DNA of 64,000 nt from Escherichia coli (GCF_013122565.1 NZ_CP053258.1), one strand, 5' to 3'; counted from the first letter of the stretch, positions 4,590 to 56,416 are shown. Made by a program: numbers and translations. Notes: a model not told the origin generated them from the letters alone.

Positions 4590-6861
4590 GGAAAACTCCC
4601 CAGTGTTGCAGCGATGCCAGTGCCTGCTGTTCGAGTTGTTGATGATGTGCAATGGCTTGTGGTGGACAATGCAACGGCATTTGCAGAGCCGAAACGGGAA
4701 GTTGCGCCAGTTGATAATGTTCAAGCACCTGATGCGCCAGCGTCCCGCGTTCTCGTGGCGGTAGCCAGGCCATCGCCGCGCGTAAATCGGGCAGGGCATT
4801 GATAAAATCGGCATCACTTAGTTGATTTAAATGACTGCTGAAACCGGCGATAAATGCCGGCTGACAAGCCAGTTGATGACGGGCTAATGCCAGCAAACCG
4901 TGCAGCGCCTCGCCGGATTGGGCCGGGGATAACTGCGTCAGCATTGTCAGCGCCGCTTCGGCACTAGCGTTGGGATGTTCCAGACGCATCAGTGCGCCAA
5001 GAGTCGCGCCGCGATCCAGCGCCGGGGCATGAATCGCCTGACTGCGGCGCTCCAGTAAGGCTACCGCCGCAGAAAGCGAAACGCCGGATAAGTTAACGCC
5101 GCTATGTAGATCGCGCAGGATATGGCAAAGCGCTTGCCAGCTATGCAGGTGAGCGTGAAACTCCTTTTCATCCGGTCTGCCGTTGGATTCACACAGCCAC
5201 AGCGTGCGATCGATAGCCGCGCATAACGTCGTTTGTAATATCTGCGCGCCTTGCATACCGCTAATTTCATCCAGCCGCCATAAGGCATATAGCACTTCCA
5301 GCGCCTGGCCCATTTCGGCAAATTGATTTTCCTGGGCGATTAATAATGTGAGTTGTTCCAGTAATTGCTCACTAAAGCTCGCCAGGCCCGCTAACGCCGC
5401 CTGGCTAAGACATGCGGTAATGCTGCCGATTCCACCCGCGTCCAGCATATCGGCTTCTAATTTATTGCGTGCGGCTTCCTGGAGTGTTGCACCAAAGCAG
5501 GCGGCCTCAATCAATGCCGCATGCTGGCTAAGCGGGCGGGTTAATTTCCAGCGTTCTTCACCGTTGCCTGCAAGTGTCAGTGTACTTCCCTGCTGGCGTA
5601 CAATCCCTGGGATCTCCAGTATTGCCAGCCGATGTAACACCTGACTTTGCGCTAGTCCATTGGGGTTAAAGCGATTTAAGGTAAGCTGCGCCGGAAGAGA
5701 GATTCCGGTACGTTCCAGTTCGCAGGTGACATCTTTTGGCAGAGGCGGTTGTGGCGTGGAGGGGGCAAGTTTACCGAATCCGTCACCCGCTAATGTGTCT
5801 ATCAACGTTAGCAGAATCGGATCGGTATCGGGATGAATAACTCCGCGATAGCTCCACGGCAACGGCGCGTTCAAGGCTTCTTTAATCAGCGAGCCTGCTA
5901 TGGCATCCAGCCAGTCAGTGCGTAACGGTAGTGTATGACCGCGCAACTGTGCCAGCGCCATCACATGCAGATGAGCGGCAGCCATATCAGCGGTAGAAGC
6001 GGGCAATTTGTGCTGGCGCAAACGGGCAAGGATAGTTTTTAGCAGTTGTTCACCGGCCTGCTGTAAGCCCCACTGCCAGCACCAGTTTTGCCAGACCGGG
6101 GCAGGCATACCGGAAAGGTATCCAGCCAGCACATCAAGGCGCTTTTCACTGTAGGGGGTGAGATAACAACCTGTAACGGCATCTGCCAGCGACGGCAATT
6201 CTGGCGTGTTAATTTCCTGCGGACATTCGCGCCACATTTTTGCCAGTGCCGGAGCGTGCCAGCCACCGCAGACAACTAACACGTCGCCATTATTTTGCTG
6301 CATCGCCCATCCAATCCAGCGGGCCATAAAGGCTTCGCGCTGACGATTGAGTGCATCGCCGAGGAAATCGCCCCGCAGTTGGGCAAAATAGTGCGCCAGT
6401 GCAGAGGGTAATGCAGTTCGCTGGCTTTCATCTTCGAACAAGTGATCCCACAGGGTATCGCTGTTATCCATGCGGGTGGCACGCAGCAGCAAGGTCTGGC
6501 TTTCCTCTTGCGTATCAGGCGAATCGTCCTCTTCTTCACTCTGTGCCCAGCAAGGCAAATCGATGAAGTAAGTTTGTGCCTGAATACGACGAGCGGCTTG
6601 TAGCGCCTGCCACTCCGGCGAAAATTCAGCAAATGGCGTCCAGGCACCACGCCCGGGGGCTGCACCGTCCTGATACTGGCAATAACTGTAAATAGCTACC
6701 GGAAGCTGGTGGGCTAAAAACAGTTCGTCTACCCGGTCATTAAAATCAGCCGGGCCTTCAATCAACACGTATCGTGGCCGCTGGCTTTCGATTAACGATT
6801 TCACCAGCCGGGCGCAGGCCGGACTATGATGCCGGATGCCGACAATTAACAGCTCGCTCAT
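4582..6861 (-). CDS. yehM: Large protein of unknown function YehM (759 aa)
   Basis: ORF 4582..7029 trimmed to MSELLIVGIRHH start giving 759 aa; tightly packed in the yehL-M-P-Q string. Confidence 0.8.
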   Translation of the reverse strand: MSELLIVGIRHHSPACARLVKSLIESQRPRYVLIEGPADFNDRVDELFLAHQLPVAIYSYCQYQDGAAPGRGAWTPFAEFSPEWQALQAARRIQAQTYFIDLPCWAQSEEEDDSPDTQEESQTLLLRATRMDNSDTLWDHLFEDESQRTALPSALAHYFAQLRGDFLGDALNRQREAFMARWIGWAMQQNNGDVLVVCGGWHAPALAKMWRECPQEINTPELPSLADAVTGCYLTPYSEKRLDVLAGYLSGMPAPVWQNWCWQWGLQQAGEQLLKTILARLRQHKLPASTADMAAAHLHVMALAQLRGHTLPLRTDWLDAIAGSLIKEALNAPLPWSYRGVIHPDTDPILLTLIDTLAGDGFGKLAPSTPQPPLPKDVTCELERTGISLPAQLTLNRFNPNGLAQSQVLHRLAILEIPGIVRQQGSTLTLAGNGEERWKLTRPLSQHAALIEAACFGATLQEAARNKLEADMLDAGGIGSITACLSQAALAGLASFSEQLLEQLTLLIAQENQFAEMGQALEVLYALWRLDEISGMQGAQILQTTLCAAIDRTLWLCESNGRPDEKEFHAHLHSWQALCHILRDLHSGVNLSGVSLSAAVALLERRSQAIHAPALDRGATLGALMRLEHPNASAEAALTMLTQLSPAQSGEALHGLLALARHQLACQPAFIAGFSSHLNQLSDADFINALPDLRAAMAWLPPRERGTLAHQVLEHYQLAQLPVSALQMPLHCPPQAIAHHQQLEQQALASLQHWGVFHV

Positions 6862-39494: not shown

Positions 39495-39605
39495 TATCAT
39501 CGCAACCAAACGACTCGGGGTGCCCTTCTGCGTGAAGGCTGAGAAATACCCGTATCACCTGATCTGGATAATGCCAGCGTAGGGAAGTCACGGACCACCA
39601 GGTCA
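39495..39605 (+). promoter_or_regulatory. TPP (thiamine pyrophosphate) riboswitch in thiM leader
   Basis: ggggtgcccttctgcgtgaaggctgagaaatacccgtatcacctgatctggataatgccagcgtagggaa matches the classic thiM thi-box aptamer, immediately upstream of thiM SD. Confidence 0.8.
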
Positions 39606-41277: not shown

Positions 41278-42105
41278 ATGAAACCAATGCAGCTAAGAAT
41301 TACCAGTCGAAAAAAACTCACCGCTCTATTATGCGCTCTTGGGCTAATTTCCATCGTTGCAATTTATCCGCGTCAGACGGTGAATTTTTTCTATTCGACA
41401 GCAGTTCAGATTACAGACTACATCCACTTCTACGGTTATCGCCCGGTTAAATCTTTCGCTATTCGTATTCCTGCCAGTTACACCATTCACGGAATAGATG
41501 TTTCGCGCTGGCAGGAGCGGATCGACTGGCAGCGGGTGGCAAAAATGCGCGATAACGGTATCCGCTTACAATTTACCTTTATCAAGGCGACGGAAGGCGA
41601 AAAGCTGGTGGACCCCTATTTTTCGCGTAACTGGCAACTAAGCCGCGAAAATGGCCTGCTGCGCGGGGCGTATCATTATTTCTCCCCGTCGGTATCCGCT
41701 TCAGTTCAGGCGCGATTATTTCTGCAAACGGTGGATTTCTCACAAGGCGATTTACCTGCCGTGCTGGATGTAGAAGAACGGGGAAAATTATCGGCAAAAG
41801 AATTACGCAAGCGGGTAAGTCAGTGGCTAAAAATGGTCGAAAAAAGTACGGGAAAAAAGCCGATTATTTACTCAGGAGCCGTTTTTTATCACACCAATCT
41901 GGCGGGCTATTTCAATGAATATCCGTGGTGGGTGGCTCACTACTATCAACGTCGTCCGGACAATGACGGCATGGCCTGGCGCTTCTGGCAGCATTCCGAC
42001 CGTGGACAGGTAGATGGCATCAATGGTCCGGTGGATTTTAATGTATTTAATGGCACGGTGGAGGAGTTGCAGACATTCGTTGATGGGATTAAAGAAACGC
42101 CTTAA
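41278..42105 (+). CDS. yegX: Glycoside hydrolase family 25 (lysozyme-like) protein YegX
   Basis: Signal/TM N-terminus then GH25-like sequence; alternative start at 41287. Confidence 0.75.
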   Translation: MKPMQLRITSRKKLTALLCALGLISIVAIYPRQTVNFFYSTAVQITDYIHFYGYRPVKSFAIRIPASYTIHGIDVSRWQERIDWQRVAKMRDNGIRLQFTFIKATEGEKLVDPYFSRNWQLSRENGLLRGAYHYFSPSVSASVQARLFLQTVDFSQGDLPAVLDVEERGKLSAKELRKRVSQWLKMVEKSTGKKPIIYSGAVFYHTNLAGYFNEYPWWVAHYYQRRPDNDGMAWRFWQHSDRGQVDGINGPVDFNVFNGTVEELQTFVDGIKETP

Positions 42106-42156: not shown

Positions 42157-42903
42157 ATGGAACAAGCGCATACCCAGCTGATTGCCCAACTGAACGAGCG
42201 TATTTTAGCGGCGGATAACACGCCGCTTTATATTAAGTTTGCCGAAACGGTAAAAAATGCCGTGCGCAGCGGGGTGCTGGAGCATGGCAATATTTTGCCC
42301 GGTGAGCGTGATTTAAGTCAGTTAACCGGCGTTTCGCGCATTACGGTGCGCAAGGCGATGCAGGCGCTGGAAGAAGAGGGCGTGGTGACGCGTTCGCGTG
42401 GTTACGGCACGCAGATCAACAACATCTTCGAATACTCGTTGAAAGAAGCGCGAGGTTTTTCTCAGCAGGTGGTATTGCGCGGGAAAAAGCCCGATACGCT
42501 ATGGGTTAACAAGCGTGTCGTGAAATGTCCCGAAGAAGTCGCGCAGCAGCTGGCGGTCGAAGCGGGAAGTGATGTCTTTTTGCTTAAGCGTATTCGCTAT
42601 GTCGATGAAGAAGCGGTATCGATTGAGGAATCGTGGGTTCCGGCGCATTTAATTCATGATGTTGATGCCATCGGAATTTCTCTTTATGACTATTTCCGCA
42701 GCCAGCACATTTACCCACAACGTACGCGTTCCCGCGTTAGCGCCCGGATGCCAGATGCCGAGTTTCAGTCACATATTCAGTTAGATAGCAAAATACCGGT
42801 GCTGGTGATCAAGCAAGTGGCGCTTGACCAGCAGCAACGGCCTATTGAGTACAGCATCAGCCACTGTCGCAGCGATCTATACGTTTTTGTGTGCGAGGAG
42901 TAG
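42157..42903 (+). CDS. yegW: GntR-family (HutC-like) transcriptional regulator YegW
   Basis: N-terminal winged-HTH, C-terminal UTRA-like domain. Confidence 0.85.
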   Translation: MEQAHTQLIAQLNERILAADNTPLYIKFAETVKNAVRSGVLEHGNILPGERDLSQLTGVSRITVRKAMQALEEEGVVTRSRGYGTQINNIFEYSLKEARGFSQQVVLRGKKPDTLWVNKRVVKCPEEVAQQLAVEAGSDVFLLKRIRYVDEEAVSIEESWVPAHLIHDVDAIGISLYDYFRSQHIYPQRTRSRVSARMPDAEFQSHIQLDSKIPVLVIKQVALDQQQRPIEYSISHCRSDLYVFVCEE

Positions 42904-43842
42904 TTCCTCGCGCGTTGGCGCACAATCACCGCCCCGATGCCCGACAACCCACGACGCCACTGCATTCCCCAGTAATACGGCATCCGCCAGTGGCAGACCA
43001 GAAGCCAGCCCGGCAAGTACGCCACCGGCATGACTGTCGCCCGCCCCAATGGTATCTACAACTTGCGTTGGATATGCTGGAACGCAGCCAGAAGCGTTGT
43101 CGCTGAAATACCATGCGCCCTCTTTATCGAGACGAACGATCAACGGCGCGGCAAATTTCTCCTGCCATTGCTTGCCAAGTGTTGTTATCTCTGCGGATAA
43201 AGCAAAACGTTCGGCGGCAATCTCAGCCTCTTGACGATTGAGTGACACTAAAGGTCGACAGGCCATGATCCGCGCCAGTAATGCGTCCGGGATATCGCCA
43301 ATACGTGGGCCAAAATCGATAAACGGCGTCACGTCTTGCAGCTTTTCCAGCCATTCCACTAACAATTCGCCGCAGGGCGAGGCCAGTTGATAACCGGAAA
43401 AATAGAGCAGGCTGCCAGGCGCAACGGTTAATCGTGCCAACCATTGGTGATTCCATTGATTTTCCACACCGCTGAATGACATAAAAGTGCGTTCGCCATC
43501 AGGCTCAACCAGCGCTAGACACCAGCCGTTATCACCTTCGGCGTTATCGATCAGGCTGATTAAGCCCTCTTTTGCCATCCGGTTGCGAATAATCTCCGCC
43601 CATACCCCCTGACCGAGCGGCAAGGCATTACCCGCTTCGATGCCGAGGCGCTTTAACGCCACGGCAATATTCAGTGCGCAGCCGCCAACGTTAACGCTCT
43701 GCTGTTTCAGTTCGATATCGCACCCACGCCAGGGGAGGGCATAAGCGTCGGCGATCACGTCAATGACCGCCGCGCCGACGACCATCACCGGCTGACGCGT
43801 GGTTAATTCAGGCAGCAGCGTGTGTAATCGAGCGCCGCTCAT
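42877..43842 (-). CDS. yegV: PfkB-family sugar/nucleoside kinase YegV
   Basis: PfkB motifs (GG, DTxGAGD); 3' end overlaps yegW 3' end by 27 nt (convergent). Confidence 0.85.
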   Translation of the reverse strand: MSGARLHTLLPELTTRQPVMVVGAAVIDVIADAYALPWRGCDIELKQQSVNVGGCALNIAVALKRLGIEAGNALPLGQGVWAEIIRNRMAKEGLISLIDNAEGDNGWCLALVEPDGERTFMSFSGVENQWNHQWLARLTVAPGSLLYFSGYQLASPCGELLVEWLEKLQDVTPFIDFGPRIGDIPDALLARIMACRPLVSLNRQEAEIAAERFALSAEITTLGKQWQEKFAAPLIVRLDKEGAWYFSDNASGCVPAYPTQVVDTIGAGDSHAGGVLAGLASGLPLADAVLLGNAVASWVVGHRGGDCAPTREELLLAHKNV

Positions 43843-44843
43843 ACCGCCTCCCGTTGTTGACGATATTTCGCCAGCGCCGTGGCATAGCGGTTGAAATCAA
43901 GCTGATTTACCGCATCCAGTTCCGCCTTTAACGCAGGATCGATAGCGTTAACGCCATGCAACGCGCCGCAAATCGCCGTCGCCATAGCACCGATGGTGTC
44001 TGTGTCGCCGCCAAGGTTAGCGCAGAGAACGGCGCAACGGTTCGGGTCGGTTTGTGCCAGTTCAACCAGCGCAATGGCGCACGGAACGGACTCAATAGTG
44101 CTGGTACCTGCGCCAACGACCTGGTAAAGCTGTTCGCTGGCGGATTCGGTGCCGTCGGCATTGCGCACAATTTTCAGCGCAATCTCCAGACGTGCTGCCA
44201 GTGAGGCGCTGAAGGTAGTGATGCGTTTTTGCTGTGCATGTCGCGCAATTGAAGGCAGTGAATCAACAATCGCTGACCAGCTTTCTCCGTCAATGGCACG
44301 AGAAATCGCCCATGCGATGACTACCGCACCTGCAACCGCCAGATCGGATTTATGGGTCGGGCTGGACGCCAGCGCCACATCATCAATAAAGGAATCAACA
44401 TCGCGCGCCGGAAGCAAACAACCTAATGGCGAGACGCGCATCGCTGCGCCGTTGGTCACGCCGTTGTTTTCCAGTTCAGCAACGGGTTTACCGTCGCGAA
44501 TGGCGTTAAGCGCAATCTTCGAGGTCGGACCTAGCACGTTTTTGTTGAAGGCGTCGAAACGCAGCGCCCAGTCGAGGATATTACGCCCAATCAGATCCGG
44601 ATCGATCTTGCCTTCACGTTCCAGCAACGCATCCGCCAGACACAGCGCCATCGAGGTATCGTCGGTGAATTCGGCGCGGTTAAAATAACAGGCCGCGTTA
44701 TTCTCCTTTGGTCCAGGCAGAAAACGGTCAATCCAGCCAAAGTGTGCTTTAACGCGGCTGCGTGGCCAAAGCTCGGAGGGCATCCCCATCGCATCCCCTA
44801 ACGCCTGCCCATAAAGAGCACCGAGAATACGTTCTGTTTTCAT
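43839..44843 (-). CDS. yegU: ADP-ribosylglycohydrolase-family protein YegU
   Basis: 334-aa ORF; ATGA overlap with yegV. Confidence 0.85.
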   Translation of the reverse strand: MKTERILGALYGQALGDAMGMPSELWPRSRVKAHFGWIDRFLPGPKENNAACYFNRAEFTDDTSMALCLADALLEREGKIDPDLIGRNILDWALRFDAFNKNVLGPTSKIALNAIRDGKPVAELENNGVTNGAAMRVSPLGCLLPARDVDSFIDDVALASSPTHKSDLAVAGAVVIAWAISRAIDGESWSAIVDSLPSIARHAQQKRITTFSASLAARLEIALKIVRNADGTESASEQLYQVVGAGTSTIESVPCAIALVELAQTDPNRCAVLCANLGGDTDTIGAMATAICGALHGVNAIDPALKAELDAVNQLDFNRYATALAKYRQQREAV

Positions 44844-46117
44844 TTAACTTCCCCTTGTGTCAACGCAATATCGCGATCATCGACCTTGATAGCCGTAATT
44901 TCGTTGTCGGATTCGCGGAAAAAAATCATGAACAGCACGGCGATAATGGCAATCATCACCGCGCCGAAAGTCCACATCCCGGACCAGTTGAAAGTCAGCC
45001 CGTTTACCGGTTCCGGATAAGCGAACATCTTTTCCATCATCACACCGCCAAGACGATAGCCGAGCAAACTGCCGAAGCCCTGGCAGCAGAGCGTGATCAG
45101 CCCCTGCGCGGCGGTACGCATATGCACGGGGGCTTTTTTATCGACATAGATGTAAGCGGTAACGTAGTAAAAATCGTAACTTACGCCATGCAGCAAAATA
45201 CCGAGGAACAGTAACGCGTAGGTGAAATATTCATCCGCACTACCGTAAATAAAGAAGCCATAGCGGATCGCAGCGGTGACCAGACCAAGCAATAATACCT
45301 TTTTGATACCAAAGCGTTTAGTGAAAAACGGCAATGCCAGCATAAAGAAGATTTCAGAGAACTGGCCGAGCGTCATCCAGCCAGTGGCGTTTTTCATGCC
45401 GACTTCGGTCAGATACCCGTTGGCAAAGATGTAATAGAACGCCAGTGGCATCGCAAACAGGAATGAACAGAAGAAAAAGACGAGGAAGTTTTTATCGCGC
45501 AGTAGGATCAGCGCATCCAGGCCGAGCATGACTTTAATGTCCATTTTGCCGGTGCTTTTTGGCGGCGTGTCGGGCAGGAAAAACGCAAACACACCGAGCA
45601 GAGCAGAACTTCCGGCGGTAATCAGCAGCGGGATGTTAGTCGGTGAGATATCGGCATACCCCAGCATTTGCGGCAAGAAACCACATGCCAGACCGGAGGC
45701 AATCCAGCCGATAGTGCCCATCACACGAATGCGCGGGAAATCACGCTCAACATCCGGCACGTTGGCAAAAGCGATGCTGTTAGTCAGCGCAATGGTCGGC
45801 ATATAGGTTAGCGAGTAGGCCAGCAGTAACGGGAAGAACCCGGCAAAAGTGGTCTGTTGCGCAGCGAAATACATCAGCACCGTACCAGCGAACATCAATA
45901 CCGCCAGCACTTTCTGCGCCGAGAAAAAGCGGTCAGTGATGGAGCCAACCAGAATCGGCGACAGGATCGCCGCAATGGCGGTACAGGCATACGACCAGCC
46001 AATTTCTCCGGCGCTAAAACCGCTTTTACTTAACCACAGCCACAATGGCACAAACCACGCGCCCCAGATAAACCATTCAACAAACATCATGAACGACAGC
46101 TTTGCTGTTGTTTTCAT
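44840..46117 (-). CDS. yegT: Nucleoside:H+ symporter-family transporter YegT
   Basis: 12-TM MFS-like protein; overlaps yegU start by 4 nt. Confidence 0.85.
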   Translation of the reverse strand: MKTTAKLSFMMFVEWFIWGAWFVPLWLWLSKSGFSAGEIGWSYACTAIAAILSPILVGSITDRFFSAQKVLAVLMFAGTVLMYFAAQQTTFAGFFPLLLAYSLTYMPTIALTNSIAFANVPDVERDFPRIRVMGTIGWIASGLACGFLPQMLGYADISPTNIPLLITAGSSALLGVFAFFLPDTPPKSTGKMDIKVMLGLDALILLRDKNFLVFFFCSFLFAMPLAFYYIFANGYLTEVGMKNATGWMTLGQFSEIFFMLALPFFTKRFGIKKVLLLGLVTAAIRYGFFIYGSADEYFTYALLFLGILLHGVSYDFYYVTAYIYVDKKAPVHMRTAAQGLITLCCQGFGSLLGYRLGGVMMEKMFAYPEPVNGLTFNWSGMWTFGAVMIAIIAVLFMIFFRESDNEITAIKVDDRDIALTQGEVK

Positions 46118-46372
46118 CTTTTAATTCCTTCATGACAGGTAATGTAAGGTACGCGATGACAATACCATTTAATAATACCTTTTAAATACCTTTGCGGTGA
46201 AAACTTGACCGCGGTAACATTTTTCTGATGAATCGAGCCAACAGAAAACGCTGAAAAAACATCCAAAAGATGGAAAAACTCGCCTGTAACGACCAGGATT
46301 ATGATTGCCCGCAAAAGGCGGGCCAGGACAATCCATAGCCGATATCCAATCGGAATTTACGGGAGCATAGTA

Positions 46373-47481: not shown

Positions 47482-48756
47482 TCAGGAGATATTCAATGCT
47501 TTCTCAGTCACTGGCGCAGAACTGAATCCTGGCTGCTCAACGCGAATGAATGCGCAAAGGACAAAGGCCAATAGATACAATGCTGTATAGGCAATGACCA
47601 CACCGATAGTGCTAAACCACGGTAATAACACCACGGCAATTGCCGGAGCCAGGAAGTTAGACATACCCGCAGAGAGGTTGTAAACCGAGATTGCAGCACC
47701 TTTGTGTTTTGGTTCCAGTGCCGGGAAGACAGCGGCCATCGGCACAAATGCAGCAACAAAAGTTCCCAGAGCAATCGCCGGAATCATTGCCATCCAGTAG
47801 TTGTGACCAAAGTATTGCGGCATGTAGTAAAACGCTAAACTTGATGCTGCCATCCCGAGGCAACCAAACCAGCGAATAACACGCATCCAGCCCATTTTTT
47901 CTGCCACAATCCCCCAAAAAATATTAGAGAAAATAGTGGTAAAGAAAAATGCCGCCCAGACCTGCAACCATTCAGAGGTGGTGAATCCCAGTTCATCCAC
48001 AAACATCATTGGCATAATGACCGCAAAACCGAATAACGATAAGGTATTTATAATGCGCACAATACTGGAGAGAAAAATATTGCGGTTGGTATAAAGTAAA
48101 GTTACTGCCCGACTTAATTCTGCAAACTTCTCACGGGGAGTTAAATTATGCATATGTCCAGGCGTTTTAACATGACGCAAGGAGATCATGGCAATGACAC
48201 CGCCAGCAAAGCAGAACGCCAGTGCCAGCCATAAGGTTCCCATTTCACCCATAATCGGTATCGTAAAACTGGGAATATAACTGCCAGCAACACCGATCCC
48301 TACTGAATATACCGCCCAGTACCAACCCAGAGCAGCACTGGAATTTTCGCTACGCACGTTATGAATAATAACGACGATAAATGAGTAGAGAAATAGCGGA
48401 TACGCTAAACCACGAATCCCGTAAAACAGCAGGATTAACCCATAGTTTGCCTGTCCTAATCCAAAGACCAGAAACAGAACATGGAATACGCACCATAGGA
48501 CAAAACCAATCAGCATGGTTTTTTGCGGCGTGATGATTTCCGCTACCACCCCAGAAACCCAGGCGGAAAGGGCAGCCGCCAGGCCGTAGAGCGTAAAGGC
48601 AAAAGAGGCTTCCGCAGGTGTGAAGCCTAACGATTTAATATAGTGCGATAAGAATGCGAGTTCGAAACCATCACCAGTCATAAATACTGCGATGGCGATA
48701 TATCCCCATATCAGATGCAGTGGCAAACCCAACCACTGTTTATTATTTCTGGACAT
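47482..48756 (-). CDS. rbtT: MFS polyol transporter (ribitol transporter-like)
   Basis: ~80% identical paralog of the dalT-like gene at 56485..57762; last gene of rbtD-rbtK-rbtT string. Confidence 0.7.
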   Translation of the reverse strand: MSRNNKQWLGLPLHLIWGYIAIAVFMTGDGFELAFLSHYIKSLGFTPAEASFAFTLYGLAAALSAWVSGVVAEIITPQKTMLIGFVLWCVFHVLFLVFGLGQANYGLILLFYGIRGLAYPLFLYSFIVVIIHNVRSENSSAALGWYWAVYSVGIGVAGSYIPSFTIPIMGEMGTLWLALAFCFAGGVIAMISLRHVKTPGHMHNLTPREKFAELSRAVTLLYTNRNIFLSSIVRIINTLSLFGFAVIMPMMFVDELGFTTSEWLQVWAAFFFTTIFSNIFWGIVAEKMGWMRVIRWFGCLGMAASSLAFYYMPQYFGHNYWMAMIPAIALGTFVAAFVPMAAVFPALEPKHKGAAISVYNLSAGMSNFLAPAIAVVLLPWFSTIGVVIAYTALYLLAFVLCAFIRVEQPGFSSAPVTEKALNIS

Positions 48757-48857
48757 ATAAACCTCGTTTTTAGGGTGCAGATGAATGCACTCCGGGATAT
48801 TACCGGAGTGAGTCGTTATTATTGATTGCCTGAAAACAGCGTCAGGCGGCTGGTTAA

Positions 48858-50462
48858 TTAGTCTCTGAGTAATTTTGCAGTATGCTGCAACTGCTTATAG
48901 GCCTCATATCGACGATGATGAAGAGATTGATAGCGTTCTTGCGGATAATAATATTTATCCACATGGGTGAATTGTTGCATCGCTTCGCCAACAGAAGGTG
49001 CAATATTTCCGGCGACAGCACCAAGAATGGCCGAGCCTAATAAAACCGGTTCGCAGCATTGCGTCGTAATGACCGGAATACCGCAAGTATCTGCCAGAAC
49101 TTGTCGTACCAGTGGATGCTGCCCGGCACCGCCGCTAATAACGATATTTTTACTCACTACTCCCTGCGCTGTTTGAGCGTCGAGAATTTGGCGCAGACCA
49201 TAACCAATTCCGCATAATCCAGCGATATACAAGGCGAGTAAATTATCCAGATCTCGCTCCATACCCAGGCCACAAATTACCGCTCTGGCATGAGGATCTG
49301 CGAAGGGGGCGCGATTTCCGAGAAATTCCGGCACCACGTGTAGCCCTTTCGCCAGGGCGACAGCATCTGATGGTTGCGCCGTTTTTTCGAGGATTCGATC
49401 AGCAAGCCAGACGGGGAGGGGCTGATTCACACGTTGTGCCATTTCACGAGCTTCTTCAACAGCCGGATGGAAATCCAGTAGCTGGTCAATAGCTGCTCCC
49501 GCAGCACTTTGCCCGCCTTCAACTAACCACAGACCTGGAACCATCGCACTGTAATACGGCCCCCAGACACCTGGTACAAACGAGGGAGAAGTTGTAGATG
49601 CCATGGTGCATGAAGAAGTGCCGAAAACATACGCGAGATTGTTCAGCGCTCCACCTTCTACGCCAACCGTACCGATGCCACCAGCGTGAGCATCAATTAA
49701 CCCTACAGCGACAGGTGTGCCGGGGAGTAATCCCATCTCTGCCGCGGCTTGTGCTGTTAAACCATTTCCACAAGGTGTTCCGGGAGAAACAATATGATGA
49801 CCAATGCGAATAAAATCTTCATCCGCTAACTCTGCAAGGCCAATGGTGCGGAAATAATCTGGATCCCAGCGATTTTCATGCGCCAGCCACGTCCATTTAC
49901 AGGTAACAGTGCATACTGAACGCGCTAAATCACCGGTAGCCCGCCAGGTCAGAAAATCGGCCAGATCGAAAAATTGTCCGGCCCGTTCGTAGATCTCTGG
50001 CATATTTTCTTTCAGCCAGAGAATTTTCGGTGTTTCCATTTCAGGCGAAATTTTACCACCGACGTAGTTCAGCACCGGATGGTGAGTGGCATTGATTCGC
50101 TCTGCTTGTTCGGTGGCGCGGTGATCCATCCACACAATGATATTTTGCTTTGCATCTCCTTCCGGGCTGACAGGCAATGGATCACCGTTTTTATCCAGTA
50201 CCACCAGAGAACAGGTGGCATCAAAACCGATGCCTGCCACACTTTGTGCACAAACGTCTGCCAGAGTGAGCGCATTACGAATACATGAACAGACCGCCTG
50301 CCAGATCTCCTGGCTGGACTGTTCCACGCGGCTTCCGCTGCGCCGTGTAGTTGTGATTTTTTCTGTGGCATGGGATAGCAGAGATCCGTTGAGATCAAAA
50401 ATCCCGGCGCGGACACTGCCTGATCCCACATCAACACCAATAACGGTTTTGGTTATTGTCAT
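48858..50462 (-). CDS. rbtK: FGGY-family ribulokinase (D-ribulokinase-like)
   Basis: N-terminal VIGVDVGSGSVRAG sugar-kinase motif; start chosen at MTITKT (ORF extends to 50486). Confidence 0.75.
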   Translation of the reverse strand: MTITKTVIGVDVGSGSVRAGIFDLNGSLLSHATEKITTTRRSGSRVEQSSQEIWQAVCSCIRNALTLADVCAQSVAGIGFDATCSLVVLDKNGDPLPVSPEGDAKQNIIVWMDHRATEQAERINATHHPVLNYVGGKISPEMETPKILWLKENMPEIYERAGQFFDLADFLTWRATGDLARSVCTVTCKWTWLAHENRWDPDYFRTIGLAELADEDFIRIGHHIVSPGTPCGNGLTAQAAAEMGLLPGTPVAVGLIDAHAGGIGTVGVEGGALNNLAYVFGTSSCTMASTTSPSFVPGVWGPYYSAMVPGLWLVEGGQSAAGAAIDQLLDFHPAVEEAREMAQRVNQPLPVWLADRILEKTAQPSDAVALAKGLHVVPEFLGNRAPFADPHARAVICGLGMERDLDNLLALYIAGLCGIGYGLRQILDAQTAQGVVSKNIVISGGAGQHPLVRQVLADTCGIPVITTQCCEPVLLGSAILGAVAGNIAPSVGEAMQQFTHVDKYYYPQERYQSLHHRRYEAYKQLQHTAKLLRD

Positions 50463-50472
50463 GATTGCGCCC

Positions 50473-51225
50473 TTACAGATCGACACTGCCAGGCAGGATC
50501 ACTAAATCTCGCACGGTGACATTTTTCGAGCGGGTCACCATAAACAATACTGATTCCGCCACTTCAATCGGTTGCATCAGGCTACCATTTGCCAGGGCTT
50601 CTTCCATTTTGGCTTTTGGCCAGTCATCAAGCAGGGCAGTGACTACTGGTCCTGGCAGCACCGCACCCACACGCACGCCATATTGAGAAACCTGGCGGCG
50701 GGTAGTGTGTACGAATGCCTGAACGGCAAATTTGGACGCGGTGTAGATCGGTTCCCAGATAACCGGAACGACGCCCGCGATGGAACTGGTAAAAATTATA
50801 TCGCCCGACCTCTGCGCAATCATATGCGGCAGGACTGCACGGACACAGCGAAACGCCGCATTTATATTCAGATTTAACACACGATCCCAGACATCTGGAT
50901 CACCTTCAGCCACTGGGCCGCCAATATAAGCGCCTGCATTGGCATGAAAAATATCCAGCCCACCCGCCAGTTCGATAATGTCCGCCAGCATGTTATCGAC
51001 TTGCTGATTATTGAAGAGATCGAGTTGCAGCGCGTACGCGTTTTCGCCTAACTCAGCGACAATCTTGTGCAGTTTGTCGCCTTCCCGGTCAATCAATACT
51101 ACCTTTGCTCCTGCATCGAGCAGCGTTTTTGCACATTGCAGGCCAATACCTGACGCAGCGCCAGTGATAGCTGCAACTTTGCCATTAAGGGGAGTATTCA
51201 TAGAGGGCACAGAGTGATTCATCAT
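50473..51225 (-). CDS. rbtD: Ribitol 2-dehydrogenase (short-chain dehydrogenase/reductase)
   Basis: SDR Rossmann motif GAASGIG; sequence closely resembles Klebsiella RbtD as I recall it. Confidence 0.8.
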
Positions 51226-51383
51226 ATAATCCTTTTACCAGGGCGAATTTATAGTCTCTGTTTGCTTGCACGCACTGAACGGGAATTTAGCTGCCGTGTG
51301 AAGCAAACTGCTCAATCGATGAAGCAGATCTAGCACTTGCTTAAATTCTCAGCAAGAGACATTCAAAATGAAGAGGCAAATTT

Positions 51384-52415
51384 GTGACAAGCGTTGAGAA
51401 AACGAAGAAAACGACCATTTACGACCTGGCAGAATTAACCGGCGTTTCTGCCAGTGCGGTAAGCGCTATTTTGAATGGCAACTGGAAAAAGCGACGCATC
51501 AGCGCAAAGCTGGCTGAGAAGGTCACCCGTATTGCGGAAGAGCAGGGATATGCCATTAATCGGCAGGCAAGTTTACTGCGCAGTAAAAAATCCAACGTTA
51601 TTGGCATGATTGTGCCGAAATATGACAACCGATACTTTGGATCGATTGCCGAAAAATTTGAAGAGATGGCGCGTGCCAGAGGATTACTGCCAATCATCAC
51701 CTGTACGCGGCGACAGCCAGAACTGGAAATTGAGGCTGCTCGCGCCATGCTCTCCTGGCAGGTGGATTGGGTCATTGCTACCGGAGCGACTCAACCGGAT
51801 AAAATAGCCCAAATGTGCCAGCAAGCGGGCGTACCGACACTGAATCTGGATCTGCCGGGAACACTGGCGCCGTCGATCATTTCTGATAACTATATGGGGG
51901 CGAAATTATTGACGGAAAGAATTTTAGCCAACAGCCAGAAACGCTATGGCAAGCTGGCACCTTTGACTTTTGTCGGTGGACGTATAAGCGATAACAATAC
52001 TGCTGAACGTTTACGTGGTTTTGTCGATGCCCATCAGGCTTTGGGGATAACCGTACCGGATGAACATAAACTGGTTACCGGCTACTCTTCTGCTCGCGTA
52101 GAGGGATTACTGAAAGAGGTCTTCCAAAGCTCTGCAGTATCGCTTCACGGGTTATTCGTCAACTCGACAATCTCTCTTGAAGGGGTGGTTCGCTGGCTGG
52201 CGCAAACCGGGCAGACGGGAGCCAATCAACCGCCAATGGGGTGTTTTGACTGGGATCCTTTTGTTTCTCTGCTCGGGCACGATATCGATATGGTTCGTCA
52301 GGATGTACCCGCCATGCTCGAAAAAGTGTTTGAAATTGTGGATTCTGGCGATACCACCCTGCGTCGCATTGAGATACCGCCACAACTCATTCCGAGCCTG
52401 AATGTTGTCAGCTGA
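51384..52415 (+). CDS. LacI-family transcriptional regulator, divergent from rbtD (putative ribitol operon regulator)
   Basis: N-terminal HTH (TIYDLAELTGVSASAVSAILNG), periplasmic-binding-fold C-terminus; GTG start at 51384. Confidence 0.7.
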   Translation: MTSVEKTKKTTIYDLAELTGVSASAVSAILNGNWKKRRISAKLAEKVTRIAEEQGYAINRQASLLRSKKSNVIGMIVPKYDNRYFGSIAEKFEEMARARGLLPIITCTRRQPELEIEAARAMLSWQVDWVIATGATQPDKIAQMCQQAGVPTLNLDLPGTLAPSIISDNYMGAKLLTERILANSQKRYGKLAPLTFVGGRISDNNTAERLRGFVDAHQALGITVPDEHKLVTGYSSARVEGLLKEVFQSSAVSLHGLFVNSTISLEGVVRWLAQTGQTGANQPPMGCFDWDPFVSLLGHDIDMVRQDVPAMLEKVFEIVDSGDTTLRRIEIPPQLIPSLNVVS

Positions 52416-52417
52416 GA

Positions 52418-53359
52418 TTAACGTGTCAGCAACCAGCGTGCGGTGTGTTCATCGGTGACCAGACCGTTGATCCACCCACCTTTTAATGCTGCGAGGATCG
52501 CCGGACGTTTATCCTCACCACAGGCAGCTGCGATACGTGGGCAGTTGCTTTCGCGGATATCATGGCTAGTGATCATCTGGTTGATCTGGCTTTCCACAAC
52601 ATTGCCTTCAGCATCAATAAAGCGTCCGAGGATTTCACCAACGCCTCCGCGTGCTGTTAACTCTTCCAGTTGCTGCTCATCAATAAAGCCATCTTTGAAG
52701 ATAGGGCTTTGACGACCTAAAGCACCAATACCCACGAAAATAACATCAGAGTCACGCGCTACGGTAGAGACGTTGCGGAACAATCGATTGGTTGACCACA
52801 TTTGGTACTCTTCGCGGGACTGAGCATAGCGTGGAGCTGGCCACTGGTAATATTTTCCCTGAATTTTTCTCGCCAAAAGCAGCGGTACGTCGTCGTAATA
52901 GTTACATTGCCCGTGTTCATTCATGGCGCTAATCAGCGCCACACAGCGGGTATTCTGACTATCAAAATCGATACGTTTAATGGTTTTCTTCAACGTTAAG
53001 CCAGAACCAATACCAACGATGGTCGGTTTGTCACCCTGTAAGTAACGCGCCATCAGTTGATAACAGCCAAATGTCACGCTGTCGAGCGTACTTTCAATAC
53101 TGTAAACCGGCATAATATTGCAGTCGGTTAATTGGTACTTTTCCTTTAACAGTTGGGCATAATCGAGACAGTTGGCAACCGGATGATGCAATCCAATCGA
53201 CACAATCCCTTCGTCTTTCGCTGCTGCTATCAGGCGTTGAACCACTGGCCGTGAAGTACCTAACTGACTTGCGATTTCACTCTGATTAAGCCCGGCAATG
53301 TAGTACATCCATGCCGCCCGTACTTTTTGATCGAGCCTGATGTCATCTTCTTTGTTCAC
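52418..53359 (-). CDS. SorC/DeoR-type sugar-binding transcriptional regulator, divergent from dalD (putative arabinitol operon repressor)
   Basis: N-terminal HTH (LNQSEIASQLGTSRPVVQRLI) plus sugar-binding domain. Confidence 0.7.
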   Translation of the reverse strand: MNKEDDIRLDQKVRAAWMYYIAGLNQSEIASQLGTSRPVVQRLIAAAKDEGIVSIGLHHPVANCLDYAQLLKEKYQLTDCNIMPVYSIESTLDSVTFGCYQLMARYLQGDKPTIVGIGSGLTLKKTIKRIDFDSQNTRCVALISAMNEHGQCNYYDDVPLLLARKIQGKYYQWPAPRYAQSREEYQMWSTNRLFRNVSTVARDSDVIFVGIGALGRQSPIFKDGFIDEQQLEELTARGGVGEILGRFIDAEGNVVESQINQMITSHDIRESNCPRIAAACGEDKRPAILAALKGGWINGLVTDEHTARWLLTR

Positions 53360-53571
53360 GTTTCCCTACCTCAAAAGTGGCGTGCGGAATCGTGAAAATC
53401 CCGCAACTGATTAGCGTCATTTTGGCCATAGCTTTACCGCGAGGCAAGTTTATTGCTTTGATTTGGTCATTTGTAATTTTTTTGGTCAATTGTTCTTTTG
53501 TGATCTAACGCTCTTAATTAACTCAAATGTTCGATTACAGTTCAGCCATAACGTCAATGGAGAACGAAACA

Positions 53572-54939
53572 ATGAACGAACAATTTACATGGCTGCACAT
53601 CGGGTTAGGTTCTTTTCATCGCGCACATCAGGCGTGGTATCTACACCGTTTGCAGGTGATGGGCGATAAACGCTGGAGCATTGCTGCGGGCAATATTCGT
53701 AATGATGCTGAACATGTCGTACAGGCACTCAGTGCACAGAAAGGTCGCTATGTGCTGGAAACCGTCAGCCCGGAAGGGGTAAGCGAATATGAAGAGATCA
53801 CCTCAATTCAGAAGTTGATACCGTGGCAGGCAGATTTACAACCGCTGATTGCTGAAGGGGCAGATCCGAAGACAAAAGTGATTGCTTTCACCGTCACCGA
53901 AGGCGGGTACTACCTGAATACCAGTCACAAACTGGAAGTTAACAATCCTGATTTAGCGGCAGATCTTAAAGGGGGATGCAAAACAATTTACGGTGTTATT
54001 ACCCGTATCCTCGAAGCGCGTATGGCAAATAACGCCGGACCACTAACCCTGCTGAATTGCGATAACGTGCGCCATAATGGTGAACGTTTCCATGATGGCC
54101 TGGTTGAGTTTCTCCAGCTAACTGGCAAACAGGATGTCATCGACTGGCTGAGTACAAATACCACTTGCCCGAATACCATGGTTGACCGCATTACGCCTCG
54201 TCCGGCAGCAGAACTTCCGGCACGGATCAAGGCTCAAACGGGTATTGCCGATAAAGCGCCGGTAATGGGCGAAACCTTTATCCAGTGGGTCGTGGAAGAT
54301 AATTTCCGTGATGTCCGTCCGGCACTGGAGAAGGTCGGTGTCGAACTGGTGGCGTCGGTAATCCCCTATGAAGAGGCGAAGATTCGCATTCTTAACTCTT
54401 CACACAGTTGCATCGCCTGGGCAGGTACGTTAATCGGTCAAAAATATATCCACGAAAGCACAATGACCGATTTTATCTATCAGATTGCCGACCGCTACGT
54501 GACGGAAGATGTCATTCCTTGCCTGGGCGATAACGGTATCGATTTGCCAACCTACCGTGATGTTGTACTCAAGCGTTTTACCAATCCACATATTCAGGAC
54601 ACCAACCAACGCGTCGCTGCGGATGGTTTCTCGAAAATTCCGGCGATGATTGCCCCCACACTGCGAGAGTGCTACCAGCGAGGCGTTCGCCCGAATGCCA
54701 CCGCCATGTTACCTGCACTGTTTTACGTATTCATGGAGCAGTGGCATCACGGCAAACTGCCCTATGAATATCAGGATGGCATCCTTGATGCACCAGCTGT
54801 CCATGCAATGTTCCAGTCTGCCGATCCCGTCGCTGTTTATGCCAGTGATAAAGCGCTGTTTGGCGATTTAACCGAACGTGAAGATTTTGCCGCGTTGTTG
54901 CGCGAAAAAATCGCTGACGTCTACGCGTTAATTAACTAA
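53572..54939 (+). CDS. dalD: D-arabinitol 4-dehydrogenase (mannitol dehydrogenase family)
   Basis: N-terminus [23 protein letters not shown] typical of the mannitol/arabinitol dehydrogenase family; TGGAGAA SD. Confidence 0.8.
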
Positions 54940-54952
54940 CCAGGAGGCGGTT

Positions 54953-56416
54953 ATGTATCTGGGTATCGATCTGGGCACATCGGAAGTTAAGGCGCTGGTC
55001 ATTGATGAAAACAATGAAATTGTTGCCACCCATAGTGCGCCGCTGACCATTCAGCGGCCCCATCCACACTGGTCAGAACAATCGCCGCAAGCCTGGTGGG
55101 AAGCGACGGAATATTTAATGTCGACCCTGCGGGAAAAATGCGGTCACCACTGGCAGGCGATCAAAGCCATTGGCCTTTCTGGTCAAATGCATGGTGCCGT
55201 CCTGTTGGATGAAAAAGGAGAGGCGATTCGTCCGGCGATTTTATGGAACGACACCCGCAGTGCGCAGGAGTGTGCGGAGCTGGAAGAGATCGCACCAGAG
55301 TTGCATCAGGTAGCGGGAAACCTGGCGATGCCTGGATTTACCGCCCCCAAATTGCTATGGGTACGGCGCCATGAGCCGCAGCATTTTGCGCGCATTTCCA
55401 CCGTTTTACTGCCGAAAGACTATTTGCGTTTCAAAATGACCGGCCAAAAGATTTCCGATATGTCGGATTCTGCTGGCACGTTGTGGCTCGACGTGGAAAA
55501 ACGCGACTGGTCAGATTCGTTGCTGGAAAAATGTGGCCTGACACGGGCGAATATGCCGGAACTGGTGGAAGGTTGTGACGTTTCTGCCACTCTTTCCCCT
55601 GAAGTTGCCAGCCGTTGGGGGCTGACATCTTCGGTTGTAGTTGCTGGTGGCGGTGGCGATAACGCCGTGAGCGCAATTGGTGTGGGGGCCGTTTCTCCCG
55701 GAGATGCGTTTATTTCTTTGGGAACTTCCGGGGTGTTGTTTGTGGTGACAGATGCCTATCGTCCTGCGCCGCAATCAGCAGTCCATGCTTTCTGTCACGT
55801 ACTACCGAATTTATGGCACCAGATGAGTGTAATGCTCAGTGCCGCCAGTTGTCTGCAATGGTTCTGCCGTCTGGTGGGGGTAACGGAAACAGAGTTACTG
55901 GAAGAGATTACCCAACTTTCTGATGCAGACAAAGCCAGTGCACCGATGTTCCTCCCGTATCTTTCTGGTGAACGTACGCCACATAACGATCCTCATGCCC
56001 GGGGATTGTTCTGGGGGCTGACACACTCCAGTCAGCGTGCGCTAATGGGATATGCAGTGCTGGAAGGCGTCAGCTTTGGTATTGCCGATGGGCTGCGAGT
56101 CCTGCAAGAAAGCGGTACGGCAATTGAGCAATGCTCGCTGGTAGGTGGGGGGGCGAGAAGTCCATTCTGGGCGCAGTTACTGGCCGATATTCTCGATATG
56201 CCAGTGGTGACGCATAAAGGCGGTGAAACGGGTGGGGCGCTGGGAGCCGCGCGTCTGGCCTGTCTTGCTGCGGGAAAACCACTGGCGGCAGTGTGTGAAA
56301 AACCTGAAATCTTCAAAACCTGGCGCAGCGATCCTGAACGTCATAAGGCGCTGATGCAACGATATCAGCAGTTTACTGCGCTGTATCACAACGACCTGAA
56401 CTATCGCAATCAATAA
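54953..56416 (+). CDS. dalK: Xylulokinase (FGGY family)
   Basis: MYLGIDLGTSEVKALV N-terminus; CAGGAGG SD. Confidence 0.8.
   Translation: MYLGIDLGTSEVKALVIDENNEIVATHSAPLTIQRPHPHWSEQSPQAWWEATEYLMSTLREKCGHHWQAIKAIGLSGQMHGAVLLDEKGEAIRPAILWNDTRSAQECAELEEIAPELHQVAGNLAMPGFTAPKLLWVRRHEPQHFARISTVLLPKDYLRFKMTGQKISDMSDSAGTLWLDVEKRDWSDSLLEKCGLTRANMPELVEGCDVSATLSPEVASRWGLTSSVVVAGGGGDNAVSAIGVGAVSPGDAFISLGTSGVLFVVTDAYRPAPQSAVHAFCHVLPNLWHQMSVMLSAASCLQWFCRLVGVTETELLEEITQLSDADKASAPMFLPYLSGERTPHNDPHARGLFWGLTHSSQRALMGYAVLEGVSFGIADGLRVLQESGTAIEQCSLVGGGARSPFWAQLLADILDMPVVTHKGGETGGALGAARLACLAAGKPLAAVCEKPEIFKTWRSDPERHKALMQRYQQFTALYHNDLNYRNQ

Follow-up and report, generated by a model that had tools for sequence, protein, structure and literature searches.

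yegTUV of Escherichia coli, an already studied locus, as a proposed riboside kinase/glycosidase module with an ARH-fold hydrolase

Introduction

What does a bacterium achieve by expressing a nucleoside-type transporter, an ADP-ribosylglycohydrolase (ARH)-family enzyme and a PfkB-family kinase from one operon? The question is raised by yegTUV of Escherichia coli and its regulator gene yegW, which we analysed in a stretch of 64,000 nucleotides (nt) from NZ_CP053258.1 (assembly GCF_013122565.1), hereafter the window. A first-pass annotation had suggested that the three proteins take up, hydrolyse and phosphorylate a nucleoside or glycoside whose identity is not established, and had counted the GH25 hydrolase gene yegX as a member of the cluster. 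Its caution about the substrate was justified: papers up to 2025 still call the functions of yegTUV unknown (PMC10819704, PMC11979927), and our literature search for a substrate of YegU or YegV found none. It overlooked the published work on the regulator, ADP-glucose and glycogen, the structure of YegT, and the negative tests with canonical nucleosides. The locus is a known one, its regulator and transporter having already been studied: the operon structure, its repression and two regulator binding regions are published. What we add is the cross-phylum core of the module, the swapping of its transporters, the residue signatures of its proteins and a candidate operator. We propose that yegTUV is a riboside kinase/glycosidase module that uses an ARH-fold hydrolase. 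That it is a module for ribosides, whichever of the two enzymes acts first, we regard as highly probable.

Results and Discussion

A regulator, a hydrolase and a kinase form a constant core with interchangeable transporters

The segment 42157-46117 of the window extends exactly from the start of yegW to the start of yegT. The regulator gene yegW, now ggaR (42157-42903, plus strand), encodes a GntR/HutC-type repressor (GntR 59 bits, UTRA 125 bits). On the minus strand lie yegV (42877-43842), encoding a PfkB-family kinase (PF00294, 188 bits), yegU (43839-44843), encoding an ARH-family protein (PF03747, 225 bits), and yegT (44840-46117), the first gene of the operon, encoding an NHS-family MFS symporter (PF03825 Nuc_H_symport, 608 bits). 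The gene yegX is situated outside this segment (41278-42105, plus strand) and encodes a GH25 muramidase-like protein with an N-terminal membrane anchor (PF01183, 185 bits). All five family assignments of the first-pass annotation were borne out, the Pfam thresholds being passed by wide margins. The 4-nt overlaps between yegT and yegU and between yegU and yegV suggest translational coupling. Among 5426 complete E. coli genomes, 5424 carry the 5.1-kb stretch, with the RefSeq names yegX, yegW, yegV, yegU and yegT, at 95-99% identity; yegTUV is all but universal in E. coli.

Searching the whole library with YegU returned 6972 representative homologues, and nine of the ten long ones were fusions of an ARH and a PfkB domain, with both domain orders represented. 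A YegU profile scan limited to one genome per species gave 79 loci, in which neighbouring genes were defined by crude open reading frame (ORF) calling and clustering. These loci span Enterobacterales, Vibrio, Aeromonas, Gilliamella, Clostridia, Bacilli, Lactobacillales, Negativicutes, Betaproteobacteria, Actinobacteria and Chloroflexi. The ARH gene had a PfkB kinase gene as its neighbour at 62 of the 79 loci and a GntR regulator gene at 56. The transporter varied: a YegT-type NHS protein at 30 loci, all of them in gamma-proteobacteria, an NCS1 permease (PF02133) at 18, and a PnuC-family transporter at 11, in Clostridia. All ten PnuC-like proteins tested scored 94-150 bits against TIGR01528 (cut-off 42). 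The same module arrangements were met independently in contigs from metagenomes and genomes. The ARH hydrolase, the PfkB kinase and the GntR regulator are thus the constant core across phyla, while three unrelated transporter families are swapped around it, which points to a small riboside-like solute. We found no conserved fourth enzyme when ORFs within about 5 kb were clustered and operon-like neighbours compared with Pfam; only alternative transporters and regulators recurred. At one metagenomic locus (L085, 1815-3209) a second, longer ARH paralogue of 464 amino acids is divergent from a GntR-PfkB-ARH operon.

Among the Enterobacteriaceae loci with an examinable interval between yegW and thiD, a YegX homologue occurred only in the Escherichia locus (L001); in Citrobacter, Enterobacter, Kluyvera and others, yegW is followed directly by thiD. 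In its catalytic domain YegX shares 37-41% identity with phage endolysins of the GH25 family, and this comparison of gene orders suggests that yegX was inserted between yegW and thiD in Escherichia only. Its restriction to the E. coli locus argues that the GH25 gene is a bystander, and that the unit consists of the regulator, the hydrolase, the kinase and an interchangeable transporter. The published transcript and sole target of the regulator is likewise yegTUV, and we therefore no longer count yegX as a member of the cluster.

YegU resembles ARH3 around the ribose phosphate and differs from it around the adenosine

YegU covers 285 of the 287 profile positions of PF03747 (224.9 bits, cut-off 26.2). 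Its AlphaFold2 model was of high quality (predicted local distance difference test score 97.3, predicted template modelling score 0.95). In a Foldseek search of the PDB the closest structure was MJ1187 (template modelling (TM)-score 0.80/0.89); next came a Thermus ARH-related protein, DraG (0.76) and ARH3 (about 0.77). The Foldseek probability was 1.00 for MJ1187, DraG and ARH3. The modelled YegU has the all-helical ARH fold.

For comparison with human ARH3 (hARH3), whose residue numbering was verified letter by letter, we relied on the metal-binding motif defined by Rack et al. (2018, PMC6309922). This motif is complete in YegU: E24, T60-D61-D62-T63 and D280-T281-D282-T283, of which the metal ligands align to E41, T76-D77-D78 and D314-D316-T317 of hARH3. 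D61 and D282 were invariant across 36 YegU homologues. The residues that surround the phosphate-bearing end of the ribose are also kept. YegU N131, G132 and H164 correspond to hARH3 N151, G152 and H182 and were conserved in 33-36 of the 36 homologues; the buried Gly and His, which never vary in ARH1 and ARH3, contact the pyrophosphate, and C4''/C5'' are shielded by the Asn (Rack et al., 2018, PMC6309922). The adenosine side is different. The residues F143, S148 and Y149, which hold the adenosine in hARH3 (F143 and Y149 by stacking on the adenine), are replaced by E123, G128 and V129 in YegU (the last at a variable position), and in the alignment the G115 loop of hARH3 is deleted in all 36 family members. 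With the 5''-phosphate contacts kept and the adenosine-binding residues gone, the pocket would fit a ribose carrying a 5-phosphate, and YegU looks built for 5-phosphorylated ribose rather than adenosine. We propose that it is a metal-dependent hydrolase that cleaves the ribosidic bond of a 5-phosphoribosyl compound. The hydrolytic activity of ARH1 and ARH3 is confined to ADP-ribose in alpha linkage, which has been rationalized by metal coordination of the 2''- and 3''-hydroxyls (Rack et al., 2018). As the characterized ARH enzymes cleave only alpha-1'' bonds, the YegU substrate might be alpha-linked as well.

The ARH fold and the complete ARH3-type catalytic motif would also suit an enzyme that strips ADP-ribose from proteins or nucleic acids, perhaps to guard against toxins or phages, with the transporter and kinase as unrelated neighbours. 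YegU shares with ARH3, ARH1, DraG, Tri1 and MJ1187 the fold (TM-score 0.74-0.80), the E...[T/S]DDT...DTDT motif, the buried Gly and His, and the Asn, and it shows a weak similarity to the NCBIfam models of DraG and Tri1. However, its scores are far below the equivalog cut-offs (79.5 versus 337 bits for DraG and 69 versus 490 for Tri1), and it lacks, at the sequence level, the adenosine-binding residues and loop. The gene yegU has as its genomic context a small-molecule transporter and a kinase, to which it appears to be translationally coupled, and not a partner transferase or a target protein, and ARH-kinase fusions exist in many organisms. Moreover, the locus is core-genome DNA and not a mobile island. 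We consider a macromolecular substrate very improbable. A role in anti-phage defence was looked for separately and discarded, the PADLOC search giving no defence-family hits.

YegV and its counterparts lack two residues of ribokinase

The PfkB hallmarks are conserved in YegV: the GG dipeptide (G53-G54), the NXXE motif (N202/E205) and the catalytic D269 (GAGD). Its best NCBIfam match is ribokinase, and the closest full-length matches in the PDB are ribokinases. These similarities are what could be expected if hydrolysis came first, that is, if YegT imported a riboside or ribosyl-glycoside, YegU freed ribose and the aglycone, and YegV served as a dedicated ribokinase that makes ribose-5-phosphate. 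Nucleoside hydrolases are often found paired with ribokinases, and ARH genes are retained without an adjacent kinase gene at some loci. Ribose-utilization loci of Bacteroides reportedly mix ribokinase, nucleoside hydrolase and ARH-family genes.

Several findings oppose this order. YegV reaches 81.1 bits against the ribokinase model TIGR02152, for which the cut-off is 299.65, and 57 bits against NF008353 (cut-off 341). Ribokinase RbsK is already present in E. coli, and YegU keeps the residues that in ARH1 and ARH3 contact the C5'' phosphate. In RbsK, N14, K43 and E143 are said to help enclose the free ribose, alongside contacts from D16, N46 and D255. When 57 ARH-adjacent kinases were compared with E. 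coli RbsK in an alignment, they were seen to retain the diol-binding D16 of RbsK (D28 in YegV), the GG dipeptide, N46 (N58), the NXXE motif and the catalytic D255 (D269). By contrast, N14 is V26 in YegV and K43 is C55, while E143, at a variable position, is A154. Across the alignment the N14 position is occupied by V, F, I or M in the ARH-adjacent kinases, Cys stands in place of K43 in 51 of the 58 sequences, and Phe in place of I110 in 54. The loss of N14 and K43 extends to divergent RbsK-like partner kinases and to every ARH-PfkB fusion examined, while a bystander PfkB protein encoded in the Oenococcus oeni locus, which served as a control, keeps the full RbsK signature. Taken together with the 5''-phosphate contacts of YegU, the absence of Asn14 and Lys43 from the partner kinases suggests that the order implied by the first-pass annotation, hydrolysis and then phosphorylation, is probably reversed. 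The type of pathway that it proposed stands, given that the ARH and kinase genes are adjacent at most loci and fused in both orders. Hydrolysis first, with YegV acting as a dedicated ribokinase, is the main rival and, in our estimate, the less likely order. We propose, from these residue patterns, that YegV is a riboside 5'-kinase rather than a ribokinase.

Two characterized systems offer comparisons. The Salmonella enterica genes STM4065-STM4066-STM4067, which among characterized systems come nearest to the yeg module in architecture, resemble it in encoding a permease, a PfkB kinase and a putative ARH protein. STM4066 is an aminoimidazole riboside kinase (PDB 1TYY), which was found by experiment to phosphorylate a riboside with a small heteroaromatic aglycone, and loss of STM4067 attenuates persistence in the pig gut. 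The three genes are said to form an operon associated with a GntR-type regulator, STM4068, and the permease is not known to be of the NHS type. They are paralogous, not orthologous, to yegTUV, and our E. coli locus does not contain them; 1TYY matches YegV at E = 8e-5 only. We also considered whether all partner kinases belong to one family with 1TYY and rejected this, as various PfkB subfamilies pair with ARH genes; the trait common to these subfamilies is the loss of RbsK N14 and K43. The second comparison is pseudouridine catabolism in E. coli (psuK/psuG/psuT, or yeiC, yeiN and yeiM), in which a transporter, a PfkB 5'-kinase and a glycosidase acting on the 5'-phosphate, with ribose-5-phosphate and the base as products, follow the logic that we propose for yeg. 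Like YegV, PsuK-type kinases lack Lys43 of RbsK, with Val at this position, and the plant enzyme AtPUKI also lacks Asn14, with Ile in its place. PsuG differs from YegU in having another fold and in cleaving a C-C bond, and the psu transporter is of the CNT type. YegV scores 19 bits against the PsuK model (cut-off 540); like YegU, it falls well short of every named NCBIfam equivalog.

YegT keeps the ribose contacts of NupG and changes the base contacts

YegT scores 650 bits against the nucleoside permease model TIGR00889 (cut-off 446) and is near-identical to PDB entry 8ZOJ, the YegT crystal structure from a 2025 paper in the Journal of Biological Chemistry (PMC11979927). By sequence it is an NHS-family (NupG-like) proton symporter. 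It has the same family and fold as NupG and XapB and keeps the GxxxD protonation site (D315). According to the NupG structure paper, the ribose contacts R136, T140 and E264 of NupG are identical in YegT, where they are R131, T135 and E255. Unlike NupG and XapB, YegT has a distinct base-contact signature. The NupG base-contact residues are not conserved in it (PMC11979927). In our mapping onto NupG, F143 is replaced by W138, Q225 by A226, N228 by Y229, Y318 by H310 and F322 by Y314. None of the 30 module-linked orthologues, which go down to 63% identity, departs from this signature, and R131, T135, E255 and D315 are invariant too; a non-module NHS gene in a Serratia locus encodes the NupG signature. 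The base pocket of YegT would thus be remodelled into an aromatic cage. In published tests, isothermal titration calorimetry detected no binding of uridine, adenosine, cytidine or guanosine (PMC11979927), and a 2024 transport study detected no uptake of xanthosine, uridine, cytidine or gemcitabine.

Repression by YegW/GgaR and a candidate operator

YegW consists of an N-terminal GntR winged helix (PF00392) and a C-terminal UTRA effector domain (PF07702), and scored below all the named NCBIfam equivalog cut-offs (PhnF, HutC, TreR). It was renamed GgaR and described as a single-target repressor of the 3.3-kb yegTUV mRNA by chromatin immunoprecipitation on microarrays, electrophoretic mobility shift assay (EMSA) and Northern analysis (Saito et al., 2024, PMC10819704). 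In that study GgaR bound DNA in the 190 bp preceding yegT, with weaker binding to nt 571-869 of the yegT ORF, and deletion of ggaR derepressed yegTUV about 30-fold; no operator sequence was stated.

We found that a 38-nt segment at 46153-46190, 36-73 nt upstream of the yegT ATG, recurs within yegT at 45273-45310. The upstream copy reads GGTATttaaaaGGTATtattaaatGGTATtgtcatcgcGTACC on the yegT strand. The two copies agree at 30 of 38 positions, whereas 200 shuffles reached 26 at most. The upstream copy falls inside published probe 2 and the intragenic copy inside probe 5 (nt 571-869), which was bound by GgaR solely at a higher protein amount (PMC10819704). We infer that this segment with its GGTAT repeats is the GgaR operator. 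The predicted primary operator (46148-46190, minus strand) comprises GGTAT at 46190-46186, 46179-46175 and 46166-46162 and an inverted GTACC at 46152-46148; the predicted secondary, weaker site is the intragenic copy (45273-45310, minus strand; ORF nt 808-845). In 20 aligned upstream regions of yegT from Enterobacterales, the consensus AAAGGTATTTaAAAGGTATTA...TGGTA...GTACC was at least 90% conserved while its flanks drift, and Vibrio retains GGTAT-N6-GGTAT followed by an inverted ATACC. The intragenic copy encodes GIKKVLLLGL. By using GTA and TTA/TTG as codons, E. coli, Citrobacter, Kluyvera and Vibrio preserve GGTAT; Enterobacter has GTC/CTG at these positions. This pattern may reflect lineage-specific selection on a coding-region operator.

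A sigma-70 promoter of yegTUV is predicted at 46172-46201 on the minus strand, with TTCACC as the -35 element (46201-46196) and TATTAT as the -10 element (46177-46172); it comes from a consensus scan (9 of 12 matches) whose hits are no more frequent than in shuffled sequence. The GGTAT repeats overlap the predicted -10 element, which fits repression by promoter occlusion. GgaR would occlude the promoter through the tandem repeats and would be released by an ADP-sugar-like or phosphoribosyl effector. An inverted repeat, AAAATGTTACCGCGGTCAAGTTTT (46200-46223), abuts the -35 hexamer and resembles a CRP site. Its core TGtTA-N6-TCAa is conserved in Enterobacterales, and it matches the CRP site reported for the fbaB/yegT spacer by genomic SELEX (systematic evolution of ligands by exponential enrichment). 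CRP probably adds a layer of catabolite control on top of the repression by GgaR. Upstream of the orthologous GntR-ARH-NCS1-PfkB operons of Lactobacillus reuteri, L. brevis and O. oeni we found a perfect palindrome, ACTTGAGTACTCAAGT (L090, about 5265-5285; L092, about 5240-5260; L094, about 5255-5275), which is likely an autoregulatory operator distinct from the enterobacterial GGTAT repeats.

The published regulation also offers another function for the operon, namely that yegTUV acts on or supplies ADP-glucose, by taking it up, cleaving it or phosphorylating it, and that GgaR senses this compound and sets glycogen storage (Saito et al., 2024). In EMSA, 10-100 uM ADP-glucose freed GgaR from DNA, while ADP and glucose were inactive; the ggaR mutant accumulated 2-3 times more glycogen and grew poorly on M9 glucose (PMC10819704), and a yegV deletion turned up in a screen for low glycogen. 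However, the effector panel consisted of these three compounds, without ADP-ribose, nucleotides derived from nicotinamide adenine dinucleotide (NAD) or other sugar nucleotides, and the in vivo evidence was a 3-fold change with glucose concentration. The chemistry of ARH enzymes cuts a bond at ribose C1'', and ADP-glucose has none. Furthermore, the ARH/kinase/GntR core is associated with NCS1 or PnuC transporters in many phyla, with no glycogen genes nearby. The effect on glycogen could be indirect, for example via the pools of adenosine monophosphate, ribose-5-phosphate or phosphoribosyl pyrophosphate under 30-fold derepression. We judge a direct role in ADP-glucose metabolism to be improbable.

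The convergent 3' ends of yegV and yegW share 27 nt (42877-42903), an overlap that is kept in Enterobacteriaceae loci; the pair is listed as an excludon in a 2025 survey. With this arrangement, strong transcription of yegTUV could interfere with expression of the repressor.

Proposed pathway and the nature of the aglycone

We propose the following sequence of events. YegT would import a non-canonical riboside by proton symport, YegV would phosphorylate its 5'-OH to give a riboside-5'-phosphate, and YegU, with its ARH3-type two-metal centre, would hydrolyse the C1' bond and release ribose-5-phosphate and the free aglycone. This order, with the kinase acting first, is the one that we prefer, and we give it slightly less than an even chance. 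The 5-phosphoribosyl nature of the YegU substrate is inferred from the active-site residues. Our analysis narrows the question to an ATP-dependent release of ribose-5-phosphate from unusual ribosides, and supplies a predicted operator sequence. If the proposal is true, the ARH fold has been recruited for catabolism or salvage of small-molecule ribosides, and a widespread annotation that implies protein de-ADP-ribosylation would be corrected. A nutrient, or a damaged metabolite, that many gut bacteria scavenge would come to light as well. The core is found in gut Clostridia and lactobacilli as well as in Vibrio, Bacillus and Actinobacteria.

As for the aglycone, some observations hint at NAD metabolism. 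PnuC-family transporters accompany the ARH module, the in vitro effector ADP-glucose is a close analogue of ADP-ribose, and a structure of ARH3 with bound alpha-NAD+ exists. In Leuconostoc holzapfelii and a related contig (L053, 6160-12258; L088, 3015-9266), an ARH-NCS1-PfkB module without GntR directly follows genes for NrtR, a NiaP-like MFS transporter and a NadC-like quinolinate phosphoribosyltransferase, and a pairing of NrtR with draG has been published for Streptomyces. Upstream of the Leuconostoc NiaP-like gene we found a perfect 13+13 palindrome, TTAATAAAAGTAA-aaa-TTACTTTTATTAA. Control of the ARH module by NrtR was considered and dropped: the palindrome precedes the NiaP-like gene, and there is none in the gap before the ARH gene. 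A pyridine- or NAD-derived aglycone is the first of our candidates, though in our view still rather unlikely. It is tempting to speculate further that YegU is the nicotinamide mononucleotide (NMN) glycohydrolase of the E. coli pyridine nucleotide cycle, an activity that had no assigned gene as of 2005, or an enzyme for alpha-anomeric (damaged) nicotinamide or nicotinate ribotide; YegT would then import and YegV phosphorylate the riboside, and GgaR would sense ADP-ribose, which ADP-glucose mimics. The chances of this more specific version are slim. If it were true, the ARH fold would serve NAD salvage or repair in many phyla by acting on a small molecule. The riboside could also be of the alpha-ribazole type, a product of ADP-ribose breakdown, or an aminoimidazole riboside.

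A number of points weigh against the proposed pathway or its NAD variant. Some loci, such as those of Edwardsiella and Brenneria, have the ARH gene, with or without GntR, and no adjacent kinase or transporter gene, which fits hydrolysis before phosphorylation or an endogenous substrate. The kinase-first order draws on residue patterns and on the free-ribose contacts that are reportedly made by RbsK, and the alpha-specificity that YegU might have is a property of ARH1 and ARH3, to which its subfamily is only about 22% identical. The link to NAD comes from two related Leuconostoc-type loci of one lineage, and stays weak in the light of the 160-nt gap before the Leuconostoc ARH gene, in which no NrtR-like palindrome was found. 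The transporter families of the module also carry other heteroaromatic solutes, and our literature search for a link between ARH and PnuC found none. An Rfam scan at gathering thresholds revealed no adjacent riboswitch near 15 module loci without GntR, its hits being a distant thiamine pyrophosphate (TPP) element, signal recognition particle RNA and tRNA only. Finally, the glycogen and ADP-glucose phenotype is not directly explained by the riboside pathway; it may arise indirectly, with the 30-fold derepression acting on nucleotide and pentose-phosphate pools.

Genomic surroundings of the locus

The thiMD operon is immediately upstream of yegX on the same strand, with a TPP riboswitch upstream of thiM (about 39506-39602 of the window, from the RefSeq annotation of a matching genome). 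A link of the module to thiamine, suggested by the adjacency to thiMD, a weak CytX-like score of NCS1 proteins and the precedent of the aminoimidazole riboside kinase, was set aside. The adjacency is confined to vertically related Enterobacteriaceae and is therefore not independent evidence. On the other side, fbaB is divergent from yegT in the ORF list, and beyond it (47482-56000 of the window) lies an island for ribitol and D-arabitol utilization (rbt/dal). It includes genes for an RbtT/DalT MFS transporter (47482-48756) and an FGGY pentulose kinase (48858-50486), and, according to RefSeq, also dalD, xylB and a LacI-type regulator. This island is present in just 335 of the 5426 complete E. 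coli genomes, and in the genome that best matches the yeg region it is replaced by gatYZABCD.

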